From Dehalococcoidia bacterium (GTDB lineage: Bacteria; Chloroflexota; Dehalococcoidia; Bin125): a stretch of 64,000 nt of DNA. The DNA lies in contig OZ220495.1 of NCBI GenBank assembly GCA_965116225.1, positions 2,023,043-2,087,042 of the forward strand, given 5' to 3'. Positions 4,439 through 14,736 of this stretch are shown piece after piece (positions within the stretch are counted from its first letter, which is position 1; each line of letters starts with the position of its first letter). The notes beneath the pieces are model-generated. The model was not told where the DNA came from. It searched no databases and was given only the letters and a program-made list of their open reading frames with translations. A program made the translations under genes and the position numbers.

Positions 4439-5460
4439 GCGGCGTGAGCCGATCGATCGGCGCGGTTGTCGTCGCGCTACTCCCGCTGGCGCTGATCGCG
4501 TGCGGCGATGGTGCGGTGGACATGGAGCGCCGCATCCCGGTGCCGGGCACGTTCGTCTACACGTCAGCCACCGATCTATGGATACAGGACGACGCGGGCG
4601 CTCGACTGTTGATCGCCGCTGGGCAGGACCAGCAACTCTTGCAGCCGGCAATCTCGCCCGACGGCACGCAAGTCGCCTACGTCGTCTTTCAGCCGACGCA
4701 AGCCGCAGGGACGACGATCGGTGCCGACCTCGCCGTCGCCAGGCTCGATGATCCCGAGCCGCAGATCGTCTTCGGCCACGCCGAGCACGCCGAATTCGCC
4801 TGGAATCCGCGCTGGACGCCCGATGGCGCATCGCTCATCTTCACGCGGGAATCGGCTCAGTCGGCGACATCGAGGATCAGCGTGTCTCGGCTGCATCTCT
4901 CGACCGGGGTGGTTGAGGTCTTGCGCGACGATGCGCGCGACGCCGATATCTCGCCCGACGGCGACCGACTGGTGTTCGTCAGCGGGCCTTACAGCGGCGA
5001 TCCCCATCTCGTGGTGCAGTCGTTGTCGGACGGTGCTGAGACTGAACTGGATCCGGAGCGCTCTTGGCAACTTCGGCCATTCCGTATCCCTCGCTTCAGC
5101 ACCGACGTCCGCCGCGTGCTCTTTTCCGCCGGTCAAATTTTGCCGCAGGTCTCGGCCGTTGCGCTGAGCTTGAACGGTCCCGAAGATATCTGGAGCTACG
5201 ACCTGTCCAGCGCCGAACTCCAGCAGATCGCCGCCGTCGGCGAGGACCAGCCCGACTTCACCCTCTCCAACGACGGCCGTCACGTGCTCATCCTCGGCGC
5301 CTTCGGCGTATACCTAATATCGGCATCCGCATCCGAACTCGTCTACGCCATTGCCGCCGGCGAGATCCACGGTTGGATCGACTGGCGCGGCAACATCAGC
5401 GACGATGAGTGGGCCGCGATCCGGGCGTCGATCTTCGAGACGACGGGCGCGACGCCGTGA
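4435..5460 (+). CDS. TolB-like/PD40 beta-propeller lipoprotein
   Basis: LIAC lipobox; repeated PAISPDG, PRWTPDG, DISPDG, PRFSTD, LSNDG blades; TTG start overlaps the previous stop. Confidence 0.8.
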   Translation: MSGVSRSIGAVVVALLPLALIACGDGAVDMERRIPVPGTFVYTSATDLWIQDDAGARLLIAAGQDQQLLQPAISPDGTQVAYVVFQPTQAAGTTIGADLAVARLDDPEPQIVFGHAEHAEFAWNPRWTPDGASLIFTRESAQSATSRISVSRLHLSTGVVEVLRDDARDADISPDGDRLVFVSGPYSGDPHLVVQSLSDGAETELDPERSWQLRPFRIPRFSTDVRRVLFSAGQILPQVSAVALSLNGPEDIWSYDLSSAELQQIAAVGEDQPDFTLSNDGRHVLILGAFGVYLISASASELVYAIAAGEIHGWIDWRGNISDDEWAAIRASIFETTGATP

Positions 5461-7688
5461 CGCGCCTCGGTCTGATCGTCTGCTCGCTGATGGCGATGCT
5501 GGCGGCATTGCGCCTGACGGCGCCTGACGCGCACGCGCACGCGTTGCTCGCCCGCGCCGACCCGCCGATCAACGCCTCGCTGCGCGAATCGCCGACCACG
5601 ATCACGCTGTTCATGACCGAGCAGCTACAGCGCAGCCATAGCTCGGTGCAAGTGCTCGACAGCGGCGGCGGGCGGCGAGACATTGGCGAGACCGAGTTTT
5701 CCGACGCGGTCGCGACGCAAATGAGCGTCCGCGTATTGCGGCTCGATCCGGGCGTCTACACCGTTGTTTGGCGAACGCTCTCCGAAGTGGATGGCCATAC
5801 CTGGACCGGTTCGTACGTCTTCTCGGTGCTTAACCCCGATGGCTCAGCGCCAACGGGCGGCGGATTGGACGTCGATCTGGATCGTCCAGGTCCGCCGATC
5901 GCGGTCGACTCGGCCGTCAAAGCGATCGGGCTCGGCGCGCTCGTGCTCTTCGTGGGCGCGGTGTGTATCGCGTTGCTGTTGCGACCACTTCCCATACCGG
6001 CTCTGCTTCCATTCATGTCGCTAACGGTTGTGGTTGGACTCGCGGCGACCAGCTACGAGGCGGTCGCCGGCGCGCTGCGGCTGGGGAACATTGGGTTCCT
6101 GGGCGATGTGTTGTTCGAGACGCGTAACGGACTCTGGCTGCAGCAGCGTTGGTACGCGCTGATTGCGGCGGCGCTCATCCTCGGTCTGCTCTGTATTCAA
6201 GGGGCGAAACGCCGGCGAGATGTCGCCGAGTTGGAGCGGCGCGAGCATTCCGTCGTGCTCACGTTCCTCGCAATACTAGCGATCGTCTGGCTCGCTTCGT
6301 CATCGGCGATTTCGCATGGCGCGGCGATCGGCACAGGCTGGATCTGGGGCGCGCTATTCGATGCGTTGCATCTGGCGTCGGCGGCGATCTGGATCGGAGG
6401 GCTCGCCAGTCTGTTGCTGGTGCTCCGCGCACATTCCGATTATCGGATCGAATCTGTCCGCCGGTTCTCCGTTCTCGCGGCGATCATGGTGCCAGTTCTG
6501 ATTGCGGCGGGTCTGCTCTCGGCGTTGATTCAGATTCCCGACGTCGACGGCATCGTCGAGACCGACTGGGGCTTGGCGTTCATCGTCAAGCTCGCCCTGC
6601 TGGTGTTGTTGTTCGCGACAGCCGCCGCCAACGCTATGTTCCTTCGACCACGCGACGCAGCGGCCGACGGCACCGACCACGCGTTGGCGCGCCGCTTCTT
6701 ACGAATGATGCGCGTCGAGGTCGCGCTCGCGCTCGTCGTGTTCGTCGCCTCGGCGGTGCTCACACAGCTTCCGTCTCCGGCTAGTGCGCAGCCGGAGGTT
6801 GAGCAAAAGGACAACACCGTCACCGAGACCGTCGCCCGCGGCGATGTCGTCGCTGCGCTCGAAATCTCGCCCAACCTGGTCGGCTTCAACACCTGGACTG
6901 CGACCGTCGAAGCAGACGCGAACAACCCGGTCGAAGTGATGCTGTTGCGGTTCCGCTACCAGGATCGCGACGTGGGACCGGTCACCGTGTCGATGACGCG
7001 GGTCGCGGACGATCGGTTCCAACTCGAGGGTGCCTACTTCGGGCTACCTGGCGAGTGGACGGTGGAGATGGAGATCCGTCGTGCCTCGGGTGACGACCTG
7101 ATCACCGGCGTGCGCGCTCGGGTGGAGTCCGGCTACCAGGCATCGCCGTTCGCCGCCGACCGCGGTGGCGCGCTCGCCTTGCCGCTGACCCAGATGGACT
7201 GGAACGGCGTCGGCGCGCTCTGGGCTTTCCTGTTCGGCGGGCTGGTTTGGATCAATCGGCCGCACATTCGCAGCCAATGGGGTCCGCGCGGTGGCGATGC
7301 CGCCTTTGGCGGCGGCGTGCTCGGCCTGATTGCGGCCGTCGTTTTGCTGACCGGTCTACACGTCGAGCCCGGTCGAACCCTGGCCAATCCAGTTCAGCTA
7401 AGCCAGGAATCGGTCGAACGCGGGGCGTCCCTGTTCGCGCGCAACTGCGTCGCGTGTCACGGCGAGCAGGGCGCTGGCGATGGGCCGCTAGCGGACACGT
7501 TACCAGCGCCGCCGGCTAACTTCACCGTGCATGTCCCGTTCCATCCCGACGGCGTCCTGTTCGCCTGGATTAGCGACGGCATCCGCGGTACCGGAATGCC
7601 GGCCTGGTCGCCGCAGCTGTCCGATCAGGAACGCTGGGACCTGGTCAATTTCCTGCGTGCGACCTTCGATTTGTCAGCCGCGCGGTAG
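5457..7688 (+). CDS. CopC-CopD-(YtkA/FixH-like)-cytochrome c fusion
   Basis: HALLARADPP...LSEVDGH (CopC); multi-TM with SHG, HL..AAIWIGGL, RRFS and K.AL (CopD); Ig-like segment; CVACH heme motif and GTGMPAW axial Met. GTG start overlaps the upstream TGA. Confidence 0.85.
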   Translation: MTRLGLIVCSLMAMLAALRLTAPDAHAHALLARADPPINASLRESPTTITLFMTEQLQRSHSSVQVLDSGGGRRDIGETEFSDAVATQMSVRVLRLDPGVYTVVWRTLSEVDGHTWTGSYVFSVLNPDGSAPTGGGLDVDLDRPGPPIAVDSAVKAIGLGALVLFVGAVCIALLLRPLPIPALLPFMSLTVVVGLAATSYEAVAGALRLGNIGFLGDVLFETRNGLWLQQRWYALIAAALILGLLCIQGAKRRRDVAELERREHSVVLTFLAILAIVWLASSSAISHGAAIGTGWIWGALFDALHLASAAIWIGGLASLLLVLRAHSDYRIESVRRFSVLAAIMVPVLIAAGLLSALIQIPDVDGIVETDWGLAFIVKLALLVLLFATAAANAMFLRPRDAAADGTDHALARRFLRMMRVEVALALVVFVASAVLTQLPSPASAQPEVEQKDNTVTETVARGDVVAALEISPNLVGFNTWTATVEADANNPVEVMLLRFRYQDRDVGPVTVSMTRVADDRFQLEGAYFGLPGEWTVEMEIRRASGDDLITGVRARVESGYQASPFAADRGGALALPLTQMDWNGVGALWAFLFGGLVWINRPHIRSQWGPRGGDAAFGGGVLGLIAAVVLLTGLHVEPGRTLANPVQLSQESVERGASLFARNCVACHGEQGAGDGPLADTLPAPPANFTVHVPFHPDGVLFAWISDGIRGTGMPAWSPQLSDQERWDLVNFLRATFDLSAAR

Positions 7689-10219: not shown

Positions 10220-11020
10220 GTGACATCGCGCGAAAGCGAACTCAACTACGAGATCGGCGGACCGCCTGGCGGCCGGCCTGTGCTCTTTGTGCACGGCATT
10301 CTGACCTGTCGGGCCCATTGGTTGCTGAATCTCCCCGCCTTTCACCAGGCTGGATTTCGCAGTATCGTCGTCGAGTTGTTTGGTCACGGTTCCTCGCCAT
10401 CGCCCGAGGATGCCGTCGCCTACCACCCCGACCGCTACGCCGATCGGTTTAGCGTGCTGCGCGCGCGAATCGGAGCCGAACGCTGGTTCGTCGTGGGACA
10501 ATCGCTGGGTGCCGCGCTGACGCTGCACTACGCCATGTCGCGCCCCGATGAGATGATCGCGCACGTGGTGACCAATTCGCACTCCGCCTTCGGCGACCCG
10601 GGCCGAATCGGCAATCCCGAGGCAGCGCGGGAGCGGGCGCAGGTGATGATCGACGGCGGTATCGACGCTGTCATGCGGCATCCTCTCAACCCGCGCCGAG
10701 CACGCGCCTTCAGCGCCGCCCAGCGCGCGCAGTTCGACGATGCGATGCTGCTCAGCTCCGCCGAAGGCATCGCGCGCACGATGCTCTATACCTCGCCCTA
10801 TACGTCGCTCCGGCACCGTCTGGCGGAGAATCCGGTCGATACGTTGCTTGTCGCCGGCGATCGTGAAGCGGCCTTTACGCCAGCTCGTGAATGGGTGGAA
10901 GCCAACGCCGCCAATGTTCGAGTCGAGCGTGTTTCGGCGACGCATGCTGTCAACATCAGCGCGGCCGAGGATTTCAACAGGATCGCCATAGGCTTTCTGG
11001 AGCAGCATCTGCTCGGATGA
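10220..11020 (+). CDS. Alpha/beta hydrolase
   Basis: FVHG oxyanion region, GQSLG nucleophile elbow, GDRE, THAVN catalytic His. Confidence 0.88.
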   Translation: MTSRESELNYEIGGPPGGRPVLFVHGILTCRAHWLLNLPAFHQAGFRSIVVELFGHGSSPSPEDAVAYHPDRYADRFSVLRARIGAERWFVVGQSLGAALTLHYAMSRPDEMIAHVVTNSHSAFGDPGRIGNPEAARERAQVMIDGGIDAVMRHPLNPRRARAFSAAQRAQFDDAMLLSSAEGIARTMLYTSPYTSLRHRLAENPVDTLLVAGDREAAFTPAREWVEANAANVRVERVSATHAVNISAAEDFNRIAIGFLEQHLLG

Positions 11021-12978
11021 CGGAGCGTCTGGGAGGTGGTTTGGTGGAGGAAACGATCGATATCTCCCCCCTCCTGCTCGTCAGCATCCTCGCCGTCGTT
11101 GTGCCGTTCGTCGCCTGGAGGCTTACGGGCGGGCTGGTACCGGCGGTGGTCGGCGAGGTGCTTGTCGGCATCGTCTTCGGCGAGCCGTTGCTCGGCATCA
11201 TCACGCACGAGAACGAATGGTTGAACTTCCTCGCCCTGTTCGGCTTCGCCTACCTGATGTTCCTGTCTGGGTTGGAGATCAACCTCAGCCTGCTGGGGCA
11301 GTCTCTTGGTCGACACTGGTACATCCCGCGCGTCGCACTCAGACATCCGCTGATCTCCGGCGTCGCAATACTCGTCTTGACCACCGCTTGCACGTATCTC
11401 ACGCTGGAGGGGTTGCGGGTGATCGGGCTGATCGAGTCGGTCCAGATTCCCATGCTGCTCTTCATCCTGCTCGCCACTGCTGTTGGTGTCGTCGTGCCGG
11501 TGATCAAGGATCGCCCCGATCTAGGGCGGATGTCGCAGTCGCTGTTGGTGGGTGGGTTCCTGCTCGAATTCGTGGCGATTATCGGCGTAGGGATCGTCTC
11601 AGCGCTTGAGCGGGAGGGAATCGGATGGCGGATGTTCCTGCTGCTCGCGATCCCCGCGGCGCTTGGTTTGCTGATCTGGATGTCTCGGGTTGGTCCGGAC
11701 CGTCTGCCGATCATCCCGAGAACGTTGCACGAGCTGGCTCAGACCTCGTCCCAGCTCAAGATCCGCGCCGCGCTCGCGCTGCTCGTCATATTCGTGGCGC
11801 TGTCGCAGGTGGTCGGAACCGAGCTCGTGCTGGGCGCATTCATGGCCGGCTTAGCCGTGACTGTGGTCTCCCCGAGACATGGTTCATCGCTGCGCGGCAA
11901 GCTGGACGCGCTCGGTTACGGCTTTTTCGTGCCGATCTTCTTCATTCACGCCGGCGCGACGCTCGATTTGGGTGCGGTCTTCGACTCCGTCGATTCGCTA
12001 ATCCTGGTGCCCGCCCTATTGATCGTGGCATTCATCTCGAAAATGGCGCCGTCGATCATCGCCTTGGTACCTGCCTGGGGTGCACGCTCCGGCCTCGCTG
12101 GCGGTTCGCTGCTCGGCGCGAATCTGTCGCTCGTGCTGGCCGCCGGCGCAATTGCCGCCGATCTCGGCCTGATCGATAGCGGGCTGCACGGGGCGCTCTT
12201 GCTGATGGCGTTATTGACGACAGTGTTGGCGCCACTGCTGTTTGCAGCCATCGCCGGTCGCGTACTGCCGCGCGATGATGGCCACATTCTGGTTGTCGGC
12301 GGCGGCAGTCTCACGGCAACCCTGGTCGATCGACTGATGGCGGCGGGGCGCGCGGTGATCGTACTTGATCCGGATCCCGAGTCCACTGCTCGTTGGCAGG
12401 CGCGAGGAGTTGAGGGCGTGGTCGGCGATCCGCTCGACGAGCCGTCCCTGATCAACGCCGGGCTGCCGCGGGCTGAGATCGCGGTCATCGTCGATTTCGC
12501 ACATACCGATCAGATCGCCGACTACGCTAGGTCGATGCGCGCGATGCAGCCCAATCTCAGGGTGGTGACTTGGGTCTCGGAGCCGGATCCGCAACTCGAT
12601 CAGCTCGAGATCGAGGCTTACAGCCTGTCCGACGTGACCGCGCTGGCGCTGGAGGAAGCGGTGCTGCGCCCGGCGCTACACGCCGCGCGGAACGATCCGG
12701 AATCGGGCCTAGTGGAAGTCTCGATGCTAAACATCGACCTGGATGGCCTGACGCTGAAAGAGATCGACTTTGAGGGAGAGGTTCGCGTCCTCGTCGTCAT
12801 GCGGGACGGCGATACGAATGTTGCCTCGGGCGACACGGCGGTGTACCTGCACGATCGTGTGACACTGGCTGGCGAACCGGGGGCCGTCGCCGCAATGAGC
12901 AATCGCTTCCAGCAGCGCAGCCGACACCGCTGGCTCGTCGATGTGCCGACGACGAGGAACACGTCGAGCGAGTATTAG
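11017..12978 (+). CDS. Cation:proton antiporter (CPA2) with TrkA-N/TrkA-C domains
   Basis: About 12 TM helices, MFLSGLE, GAFMAG, FFVPIFF; C-terminal VVGGG Rossmann and RCK-C region. Alternative GTG start at 11044. Confidence 0.88.
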   Translation: MTERLGGGLVEETIDISPLLLVSILAVVVPFVAWRLTGGLVPAVVGEVLVGIVFGEPLLGIITHENEWLNFLALFGFAYLMFLSGLEINLSLLGQSLGRHWYIPRVALRHPLISGVAILVLTTACTYLTLEGLRVIGLIESVQIPMLLFILLATAVGVVVPVIKDRPDLGRMSQSLLVGGFLLEFVAIIGVGIVSALEREGIGWRMFLLLAIPAALGLLIWMSRVGPDRLPIIPRTLHELAQTSSQLKIRAALALLVIFVALSQVVGTELVLGAFMAGLAVTVVSPRHGSSLRGKLDALGYGFFVPIFFIHAGATLDLGAVFDSVDSLILVPALLIVAFISKMAPSIIALVPAWGARSGLAGGSLLGANLSLVLAAGAIAADLGLIDSGLHGALLLMALLTTVLAPLLFAAIAGRVLPRDDGHILVVGGGSLTATLVDRLMAAGRAVIVLDPDPESTARWQARGVEGVVGDPLDEPSLINAGLPRAEIAVIVDFAHTDQIADYARSMRAMQPNLRVVTWVSEPDPQLDQLEIEAYSLSDVTALALEEAVLRPALHAARNDPESGLVEVSMLNIDLDGLTLKEIDFEGEVRVLVVMRDGDTNVASGDTAVYLHDRVTLAGEPGAVAAMSNRFQQRSRHRWLVDVPTTRNTSSEY

Positions 12979-13811
12979 GCTGAGCGAATTGCGCTGCGCT
13001 CGGAACCGATCCCTGCCAGATGCCCCAGATAGATCGGGACCAGGGGTAGCACACAGGGACTCACGAAACTGACGAACCCGCCGACAAACGCCAGCGCCGC
13101 CGAGCCGGCATTCAAGTTGAGCATGTCCGTTGATGAGCCGTCGGATCCGGCTACGATATCGACGCCGAAGCTGCCCAGCGCTTCGTTCAGCACGACCACG
13201 CGGTCGAGCGCGATCAGCATGCCGACGAAGACCAGCAATACACCTGACACGACCCCGATCAGTGGCATCCAGCGGTTCAGCTTGCGCAGGAACTGGGTTG
13301 AGGCGCCGAACGTCGCGCCGACCAGCAGGAACGGGATGCCGAGACCGGCCGCATAGCAGATCAGCAGAATGACAGCCTGGAAGAGCGAGGCGGAGTCGAG
13401 CGCCAGCACCAGAATACCGGCTAGGATCGGCCCTACACAGGGCGTCCAGCCGACGGAAAAGGCGACACCGACGACCAGCGAGCGTCCGTAGTCAGCGGCG
13501 GCGCGAGCACGGGACGGCGTTGCCGTCGCGGTGCCGCTCGCAGCACCCGGCCCACCCACCTGAAAGCTGCGGTACAGGAACGGAATGGTAATCACCTCGG
13601 CCAGATGCAGGCCGAGAACAACCAGCAGGGTACCGGCGACGCGTTGAAACCAGATCAGCTCGTTCTGAAACGCGGAGCCGAGCGCGCCGAGCAGCGCACC
13701 CAGCGCGACGAAGACGACGCTGAAGCCCAGCACGAACGCGGCAGCGTGGAAGAACACGGCTCGTCGAGCCGCGTTCGCTCCACCCGTTGCCGTGCCGGTT
13801 GTAACTGCCAT
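12975..13811 (-). CDS. ccdA: Cytochrome c biogenesis protein CcdA (DsbD transmembrane domain), circularly permuted
   Basis: Both redox motifs present (WTPCVGP and SFVSPCVLPLVP) but in reversed order. Confidence 0.85.
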   Translation of the reverse strand: MAVTTGTATGGANAARRAVFFHAAAFVLGFSVVFVALGALLGALGSAFQNELIWFQRVAGTLLVVLGLHLAEVITIPFLYRSFQVGGPGAASGTATATPSRARAAADYGRSLVVGVAFSVGWTPCVGPILAGILVLALDSASLFQAVILLICYAAGLGIPFLLVGATFGASTQFLRKLNRWMPLIGVVSGVLLVFVGMLIALDRVVVLNEALGSFGVDIVAGSDGSSTDMLNLNAGSAALAFVGGFVSFVSPCVLPLVPIYLGHLAGIGSERSAIRSA

Positions 13812-13845: not shown

Positions 13846-14736
13846 TTATGAGTGCGTCTCACGCGTAATGCCCGCGTCCTCTTCGGCCGACAGCAGCGTC
13901 GCCAGTACCGACTTCGCGCCCAGCCCCCGATTCTTGGCGCGAATGAGCATATCGCTCACCGCCGAGGCGATCGGCGAAGGAATGCCCTGCTCCCGTGCCA
14001 CTTGTACGGCCAGCGAGACGTCCTTGGCCGCCCACTGCAGATAGAATGGCGCGTCGTCGAAATTGCGCTCCAATAGCGTCGGTACAGGCCGTACATAGTG
14101 CTGCGCCGATGCGACGCTCATCACCTCATATGCTCGCTGCGGGTCGAGTCCGGACGCCTCGGCGATCACCAGCGACTCGATCAGCAGCTGTCCGCTGCCG
14201 ATCGAGACCATGTTGTTGGTGATCTTAGTTAGCGCGCCCATCCCCAGCTCGCCCATGTGGAAGACGTTATTGCCGATGCAATCGAGCACATGTCGATAAG
14301 CGTCGAAGGCGGTCTGGTCGCCGCCGACCATCACGGCTAGCGTTGCATCGATGGCACCCTGCACGCCGTTCGACACGGGCGAGTCGAGGAAGATGACGCC
14401 TCGCTCCGCCGCCCGTTCGGCGAGTAGCTTTACGGTCGAGGGCAGATTGGTCGAGAGGTCGAAGCAGACCAGACCCGGTTCGGCACCGTCGAGGATGCCA
14501 TCCGCTCCGCGCAGCACGACTGTGATCTCGGGCGGGCCGGGCAGGGAGGTCAGCACCACCTCGGTCTGCGCGGCGACAGCGGCCGGCGATTCCGCCCAGC
14601 TTGCTCCCAGCTCGATCAGGTTCTCCGCGCGCGCCTCAACCAGGTCGTGGACGACCACGTTATGCCCACCCTTGATCACGTTGGCGCACATCGGATTACC
14701 GATGTTCCCGACGCCGATGAATCCCACGTCCGACAT
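13846..14736 (-). CDS. NAD(P)-dependent beta-hydroxyacid dehydrogenase (3-hydroxyisobutyrate dehydrogenase family)
   Basis: GFIGVGNIG, DSPVSNG, KITNN catalytic Lys. Confidence 0.88.
   Translation of the reverse strand: MSDVGFIGVGNIGNPMCANVIKGGHNVVVHDLVEARAENLIELGASWAESPAAVAAQTEVVLTSLPGPPEITVVLRGADGILDGAEPGLVCFDLSTNLPSTVKLLAERAAERGVIFLDSPVSNGVQGAIDATLAVMVGGDQTAFDAYRHVLDCIGNNVFHMGELGMGALTKITNNMVSIGSGQLLIESLVIAEASGLDPQRAYEVMSVASAQHYVRPVPTLLERNFDDAPFYLQWAAKDVSLAVQVAREQGIPSPIASAVSDMLIRAKNRGLGAKSVLATLLSAEEDAGITRETHS

Follow-up and report, generated by a model that had tools for sequence, protein, structure and literature searches.

Can a six-helix redox transporter of the membrane still work when its first helix is shifted to the C-terminus? 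This question is raised by a gene at positions 12975–13811 on the minus strand of a stretch of 64,000 nucleotides (the window), which covers positions 2,023,043 to 2,087,042 of contig OZ220495.1 from a Dehalococcoidia bacterium (assembly GCA_965116225.1). The gene encodes a homologue of CcdA, a membrane protein that carries reducing equivalents to the outside of the cell. Canonical CcdA is built as a two-fold repeat of three transmembrane domains with conserved cysteine motifs on transmembrane domains 1 and 4 (PMC10319644), and an elevator-type exposure of the cysteine pair to either side of the membrane was proposed (PMC10319644; bioRxiv 10.1101/2022.09.07.506916). The protein considered here begins at the second transmembrane helix (TM2) and ends with the first (TM1), and an earlier note on this DNA had interpreted it as a circularly permuted CcdA, an interpretation that is supported by the present analysis. 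Taking the explanation as a whole, the product of the gene is with high probability a working thiol-disulfide (reductant) transporter of the CcdA type with a circularly permuted chain.

Helix order and conservation of the permuted CcdA

The open reading frame extends from an ATG at 13811 to the stop codon at 12975–12977 without interruption and comprises 278 codons plus the stop. It is confirmed as a DsbD_TM/CcdA homologue with the order TM2-TM3-TM4-TM5-TM6-linker-TM1. The Pfam profile DsbD_TM (PF02683) matches the protein with 58.2 bits at a cut-off of 27.1, residues 11–200 corresponding to profile positions 36–214. The C-terminal 46 amino acids alone correspond to profile positions 7–43 (E-value 6.5e-5), and when they are placed at the front of the protein one colinear match covering profile positions 8–214 is obtained. 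Separate searches with the N-terminal 230 and the C-terminal 46 amino acids, of the kind proposed in the earlier note, gave the expected non-overlapping parts of the profile. The structure of Thermus thermophilus CcdA (PDB 5VKV) is matched by phmmer (E-value 5e-17) in three pieces in permuted order, i.e., chain residues 5–35 (TM1) correspond to residues 238–268, chain residues 35–90 (TM2-3) to residues 15–70 and chain residues 114–207 (TM4-6) to residues 112–209. Seven canonical CcdA queries in tblastn resulted in two to three high-scoring segment pairs each, again in swapped order, with the N-terminal ~30 residues mapping downstream of the rest. Pfam, 5VKV and the canonical queries agree on the start at TM2 and the end with TM1 as originally described.

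The translation places the two redox cysteines at the positions given before, Cys125 in GWTPCVGP (codon 13437–13439) and Cys253 in SPCVLPLVP (codon 13053–13055). Both motifs of CcdA, PCxxP in TM1 (here SPCVLP) and PCxGP in TM4 (here TPCVGP), are present. Hydropathy and AlphaFold2 (AF2) predict six transmembrane helices, and each of three hidden Markov models (HMMs) built for the segments TM2-3 (X), TM4-6 (Y) and TM1 (Z) is matched exactly once. Homology to canonical CcdA extends over the entire protein, whose N- and C-terminal parts have changed places, and re-linearising the chain brings back colinearity. Its order differs from the canonical TM1 to TM6 with both termini outside; this departure concerns the chain connectivity only and leaves the homology unaffected.

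Canonical CcdA (5VKV, PF02683, the proteins of Bacillus subtilis and Rhodobacter capsulatus) shares with the permuted protein all six helices, both cysteine motifs, the size, the predicted helix content, the best structural match and probably also the role as reductant transporter. It differs in running 1-2-3-4-5-6 with termini outside, whereas the termini of the permuted chain are predicted to be cytoplasmic, the cytoplasmic TM1-TM2 loop is cut and an additional linker connects TM6 and TM1 at the outer face. The DsbD beta domain and the thioredoxin-CcdA fusions contain the same superfamily core and cysteine pair. However, DsbD comprises eight helices and, in the periplasm, an alpha and a gamma domain, neither of which is present here, and the NCBIfam DsbD model (NF001419) matches only the core (residues 14–206) with 37.9 bits at a cut-off of 330.

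The surroundings of the gene leave no place for a conventional arrangement. The upstream neighbour, encoding an NAD-binding 3-hydroxyisobutyrate-dehydrogenase-like protein, ends at 13846, and because only 34 nucleotides separate it from the ATG there is no space for a TM1 upstream, as the earlier note had pointed out. Likewise, there is no space for further helices downstream because a convergent gene for a CPA2-type antiporter (10891–12978, plus strand) overlaps with the stop codon. The source genome is a single contig of 2.6 Mb and 97% complete. Ten canonical and permuted CcdA queries searched by tblastn against the whole genome found matches only at the locus 12975–13811, with no other CcdA piece, separate TM1 or second canonical ccdA, and the segment HMMs applied to the six-frame translation of the genome detected no further piece either. 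The permuted gene is the sole DsbD-family sequence of the genome.

The same order was sought in related genomes, as had been suggested, and it is present in more than 100 protein clusters of 55–93% identity, which stem from independent Chloroflexota assemblies. The 120 best database homologues of the permuted CcdA show 55–100% identity, are mostly ~279 amino acids long and come from many independent assemblies; every full-length member among them was classed as X-Y-Z by the segment HMMs. Relatives with this order occur in independent assemblies of Dehalococcoidia, Anaerolineae and other Chloroflexota, several of them on multi-megabase contigs. In an alignment of 32 sequences both cysteine motifs are invariant, and in the displaced TM1 this applies to S251, P252, C253, L255, P256, P259 and Y261. 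In a codon comparison with eight relatives (L003–L010) of 79–91% protein identity, 12–20 synonymous and 1–3 non-synonymous differences were counted in the 30 codons surrounding the displaced TM1, and 15–20 synonymous and 0–1 non-synonymous ones in the TM4 codons. The synonymous excess in the TM1 codons indicates that the displaced helix is translated and under purifying selection.

These data bear on the view that the arrangement is an artefact of assembly or annotation or a decaying pseudogene, in which the C-terminal TM1 would be a misjoin or a relic and the protein non-functional. One point in its favour is that the gene caller picked another start, GTG 13862, resulting in 295 amino acids. 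This longer version overlaps the upstream gene and was rejected, being unsupported by the homologues, which all start with MA(V/I)xT. Against an artefact stand the recurrence of the order in independent assemblies, the unbroken frame with its two invariant motifs, the prevalence of synonymous over non-synonymous changes in TM1 and TM4 and the fact that this is the only CcdA in a genome needing one for System II cytochrome c maturation. The artefact or pseudogene reading has a practically negligible probability and is in effect refuted already.

Membrane topology and predicted fold

The features of the permuted CcdA can be followed along the minus strand from the start codon. The new N-terminus (residues 1–19; 13755–13811) is predicted to be cytoplasmic from alignment and charge. 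It carries the invariant residues R16 and R17, whose counterparts in canonical CcdA lie in the TM1-TM2 loop; the canonical homologue P0130 reads ERRETVTH there. A Tat (twin-arginine translocation) signal was considered for this RR and rejected, as canonical CcdA contains the same basic residues in its TM1-TM2 loop. The TM2 equivalent follows at residues 20–45 (13677–13754; 5VKV alignment, with an AF2 helix at 9–45) and the TM3 equivalent at residues 57–78 (13578–13643; AF2 and 5VKV). The cytoplasmic TM3-TM4 loop (residues 79–111; 13479–13577), assigned by AF2 and charge, is arginine-rich, variable and of low pLDDT (predicted local distance difference test). TM4 with GWTPCVGP and Cys125 (13395–13478) is marked by the invariance of its motif in the 32 sequences and by the codon changes. 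The TM5 equivalent (residues 146–170; 13302–13376) and the TM6 equivalent (residues 182–202; 13206–13268) were placed by AF2 and 5VKV, the latter also by the junction alignment, and TM6 is followed by the LDRxxVLN tail that closes canonical CcdA.

Between the old C-terminus and the old N-terminus lies an acidic, poorly conserved and predicted extracytoplasmic linker (residues 203–237; 13101–13205) with pLDDT below 50 at residues 216–232. The polar linker between TM6 and TM1 described earlier was thereby recovered and is acidic; its length, however, is ~35 amino acids by the present boundaries instead of the ~25 stated. The displaced TM1 with SPCVLPLVP and Cys253 (13020–13100) is supported by the Pfam match to positions 7–43, by 5VKV residues 5–35, by its invariant residues and by the codon changes, and a new C-terminal tail (residues 265–278; 12978–13019), predicted from its charge to be cytoplasmic, completes the chain.

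The distribution of charges fits a topology with both termini inside and the TM6-TM1 linker outside. In the family the mean number of lysine and arginine residues is 11.9 in the predicted cytoplasmic segments (N-tail, TM3-4 loop, TM5-6 loop and C-tail) and 1.1 outside, and the linker contains on average 4.1 aspartate and glutamate versus 0.9 lysine and arginine residues. This topology is expected if the canonical helix orientations are kept. The positive-inside count thereby supports a TM6-TM1 linker facing outside, in line with the earlier note, which held that joining TM6 to TM1, whose ends would both face outside, is topologically feasible.

AF2 with the 32 sequences resulted in an all-helical model of moderate confidence (pLDDT 70, predicted template modelling score 0.66), its low-confidence regions being the N-tail, the TM3-4 loop and the linker. 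Compared by Foldseek with the PDB, the model has CcdA 5VKV as best match (probability 1.00, template modelling scores 0.45/0.54). The E-value is only 0.046, which is expected because the comparison is order-dependent and the chain is permuted.

The linker and the model also bear on whether the chain forms a six-helix monomer at all. Alternatively, the tethered TM1 might complete a neighbouring protomer, resulting in a domain-swapped dimer or oligomer, and the length (16–39 amino acids), flexibility and low model confidence of the linker as well as the pLDDT of only 70 for the monomer would be in line with this. Nevertheless, the linker is as long as the canonical tails taken together and suits an intramolecular join, AF2 yields a monomer whose best structural match is the monomeric CcdA, and no positive sign of a dimer was seen, making a swapped assembly very improbable compared with the permuted monomer.

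Distribution and origin of the permuted orders

A profile search returned 11,589 homologues among 1.84 billion representative proteins. Two permuted orders were distinguished: type A, TM2-3-4-5-6-1, the order of the gene at 12975–13811, and type B, TM4-5-6-1-2-3. The best 148 representative clusters, the own cluster excluded, comprise 117 canonical, 21 type A, 4 type B and 6 partial proteins. The natural permutation proposed in the earlier note thereby stands, but it is not confined to one gene: the order is family-wide and recurs across several lineages, and another permuted order exists as well. The type B members are P0122, P0125, P0127 and P0265 (MBI52067.1, Chloroflexi bacterium), some of them on contigs of 2.0–2.5 Mb. 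They share with type A the TM6-linker-TM1 junction and the predicted location of both termini inside; unlike in type A, the chain is cut in the TM3-TM4 loop and the two three-helix repeats are swapped as a whole.

Among the best 80 genome loci type A is found in 15, namely L003–L014, L026, L056 and L061 (partial). The titles of these 15 name Dehalococcoidia, Anaerolineae or Chloroflexota; loci with the canonical order are spread over many phyla. Type A matches that are colinear over the full length are present in at least 13 genomes of an even sample of 401 from the Chloroflexota, and some of these genomes have two to three copies; most other matching genomes have canonical-type partial matches. 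Two genomes of one Chloroflexota family (G274 and G043 of f28) encode two to three type A paralogues, in one case plus a canonical copy, and thus permuted and canonical CcdA can coexist in one genome. A type A gene was furthermore detected in one of 301 genomes (G552) from the class of a Rhodospirillales metagenome-assembled genome. It is located at L085:1495–2298 (minus strand) and flanked by genes for a SoxB-like protein of the 5'-nucleotidase family, a DsrE-like protein and a Thioredoxin_2 protein, i.e., in a SoxV/SoxW-like setting. SoxV is a CcdA paralogue of sulfur-oxidation clusters; in contrast to this alphaproteobacterial gene, the gene at 12975–13811 has no sox neighbours.

Public annotation names the permuted proteins simply CcdA, except for the type A protein P0299 (Caldilineaceae), labelled by NCBI as 'sulfite exporter TauE/SafE family protein', likely as the permutation weakens the profile match. 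Another type A homologue, P0110 (377 amino acids), has a C-terminal extension of ~100 amino acids rich in arginine and proline, which looks like a read-through or out-of-frame continuation and not like a real domain.

In a tree of the re-linearised segments the permuted forms are scattered among the canonical ones. Strongly supported pairs join the type B protein P0122_B with the canonical P0130 and the type A protein P0213_A with a Rhodospirillales CcdA, and the type B members group each with different canonical relatives. Moreover, one clade contains an insert of ~100 amino acids with several extra hydrophobic helices between TM3 and TM4, in type A members (L014:5476–6513, L026:5968–7014, L061, P0135, P0141) as well as in canonical ones (P0149, P0396, P0323). 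The type A members with the insert pair with the canonical P0149, again with strong support. As the insert is common to permuted and canonical members, the order must have changed within an already modified lineage. Approximately unbiased (AU) tests reject a single clade for types A and B together (p 4e-5) and for type A alone (p 1e-5). From this sequence comparison it appears that the helix order changed more than once within the CcdA family and that the permutation arose several times.

If all permuted forms went back to one ancient event and were passed on vertically and by horizontal transfer, the apparent polyphyly would have to be noise of the tree. The alignment is indeed short (209 columns), core identities between the classes are all ~50–58%, and types A and B have the same TM6-TM1 junction. 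Given the AU rejections and the supported branches joining permuted to canonical forms, a single origin is judged quite unlikely, and several origins are preferred.

The route can be read in part from the junction, which consists of the canonical C-terminus (LDxxTxxNxxF) followed directly by the canonical N-terminus. The median linker of the family has 26 amino acids and the canonical C-tail of 11 plus the N-tail of 9 amino acids gives about the same sum, as would be the case if the former termini were joined on one membrane side by a linker of compatible length. Most likely, ccdA was duplicated head to tail and fused, and both ends were then lost, which gave the permuted order. Duplication and fusion with loss of ends is the usual account for other natural circular permutations such as saposin/swaposin, the DNA methyltransferases and the domain order of transhydrogenase. 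These are soluble proteins or rearrangements of whole domains, whereas in CcdA the permutation concerns single helices within one compact polytopic membrane domain, and to our knowledge natural sequence-level circular permutations within such a domain are very rare. Two copies of any segment HMM were found in none of 380 sequences, and a doubled-protein query (542 amino acids; candidates of ~300–950 amino acids) revealed no protein with duplicated segments, the longer matches being thioredoxin-CcdA fusions or insert-bearing proteins.

The breaks are found only in cytoplasmic loops, TM1/TM2 or TM3/TM4, and therefore every permuted product would have both termini inside. It is conceivable, although we rather doubt it, that the CcdA scaffold is unusually prone to permutation, which would have occurred repeatedly and independently in Dehalococcoidia, Anaerolineae and Alphaproteobacteria, and that the permutation is adaptive rather than neutral. 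On this view, an ordinary N-in signal-anchor would open the chain instead of an N-tail that needs translocation, and the scaffold would already be formed when the broken, proline-rich catalytic helix TM1 enters it as the last one.

The literature searched, which did not cover the CcdA structure papers or the Bushweller review, contains no description of a permuted CcdA or DsbD, and a survey of the LysE superfamily does not mention permutation. An earlier description cannot be fully excluded.

Redox partners and biological meaning

The source genome encodes the parts ResB/CcsB and CcsA of the System II cytochrome c synthase. Within the window, 5 kb from ccdA, a gene at 5409–7688 (plus strand) encodes a fusion protein of 759 amino acids with the Pfam domains CopC, CopD and Cytochrome_CBB3/Cytochrom_C, which confirms that the organism makes c-type cytochromes. 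Two further proteins of the genome resemble TlpA/ResA in being anchored in the membrane at the N-terminus and carrying a WCGPC thioredoxin motif, and are candidate extracytoplasmic acceptors of the permuted CcdA. Both are encoded on the minus strand and carry the motif FWASWCGPC, one at C1:1917665–1918048 in genome coordinates, with a second, degenerate thioredoxin-like repeat, and the other at C1:2099528–2099896, ~12.5 kb past the end of the window. An operon link between ccdA and a thioredoxin-like partner was looked for and is absent in the source genome and in the close relatives L003–L010. In the more distant loci L014 and L026 a TlpA-like gene lies directly downstream of the type A gene, and a TlpA-like gene is found within 6 kb in 38 of 64 canonical ccdA loci. 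As a separate observation, a peroxiredoxin-like open reading frame at C1:50279–50650 (minus strand) has an in-frame TGA in place of the active-site codon (LAFTGG*TNE) and may encode a selenoprotein.

From these genes and from the comparison with canonical CcdA we infer the fold, topology, redox function and acceptors of the permuted CcdA as follows. The chain would be cut in the cytoplasmic TM1-TM2 loop and the end of TM6 joined to the start of TM1 by the acidic linker of ~35 residues at the outer face. The six helices would pack as in canonical CcdA, Cys253 of TM1 and Cys125 of TM4 forming the redox pair. Cytoplasmic thioredoxin would reduce this pair, which upon exposure to the outside might reduce the membrane-anchored thioredoxin-like proteins of the TlpA/ResA type. 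These in turn might keep the CXXCH motifs of apocytochrome c reduced for the System II haem lyase ResB/CcsA. By analogy, the permuted protein would do the same job as canonical CcdA, from which the elevator mechanism is carried over.

The same permuted transporter might instead have another main job, serving thioredoxin-like, peroxiredoxin or methionine-sulfoxide-reductase clients or a SoxV-like partner of sulfur oxidation, with cytochrome c not being the primary target. Canonical CcdA proteins serve several clients, ccdA is unlinked to resB/ccsA in the source genome, and the alphaproteobacterial type A gene lies beside the SoxB-like, DsrE-like and thioredoxin-like genes. On the other side, the genome encodes System II and c-type cytochromes and has no second DsbD-family protein, and whatever other clients exist, the cytochrome c route would have no alternative importer of reductant. 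A different main job is regarded as unlikely, and a reductant transporter supplying cytochrome c maturation as the better description.

Several observations weigh against the overall explanation of a functional permuted transporter that arose repeatedly by duplication and fusion. No thioredoxin-like, resB or ccsA gene adjoins ccdA in the source genome (at least 100 kb away), the AF2 model is only moderately confident and its Foldseek E-value is 0.046, the gene tree rests on 209 columns from a quick search, and an extant tandem ccdA-ccdA intermediate with 12 transmembrane helices was not found, which leaves the duplication-fusion route putative.

For the organism, the presence of a single CcdA in a genome that depends on one argues that the rearranged chain is fully functional. 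For the family, related organisms possess canonical, TM1-last and half-swapped forms of a single six-helix redox transporter. This constitutes a natural experiment, which bears on helix order, N-tail translocation and loop connectivity as constraints of membrane protein folding and on the elevator movement proposed for the helices with the cysteines. If the adaptive view were true, helix order would be open to tuning in the biogenesis of a small transporter of the elevator type. In practical terms, profile-based tools report a truncated domain for permuted CcdA proteins, and the natural breakpoints suggest sites for cutting and rejoining CcdA or DsbD in structural work.

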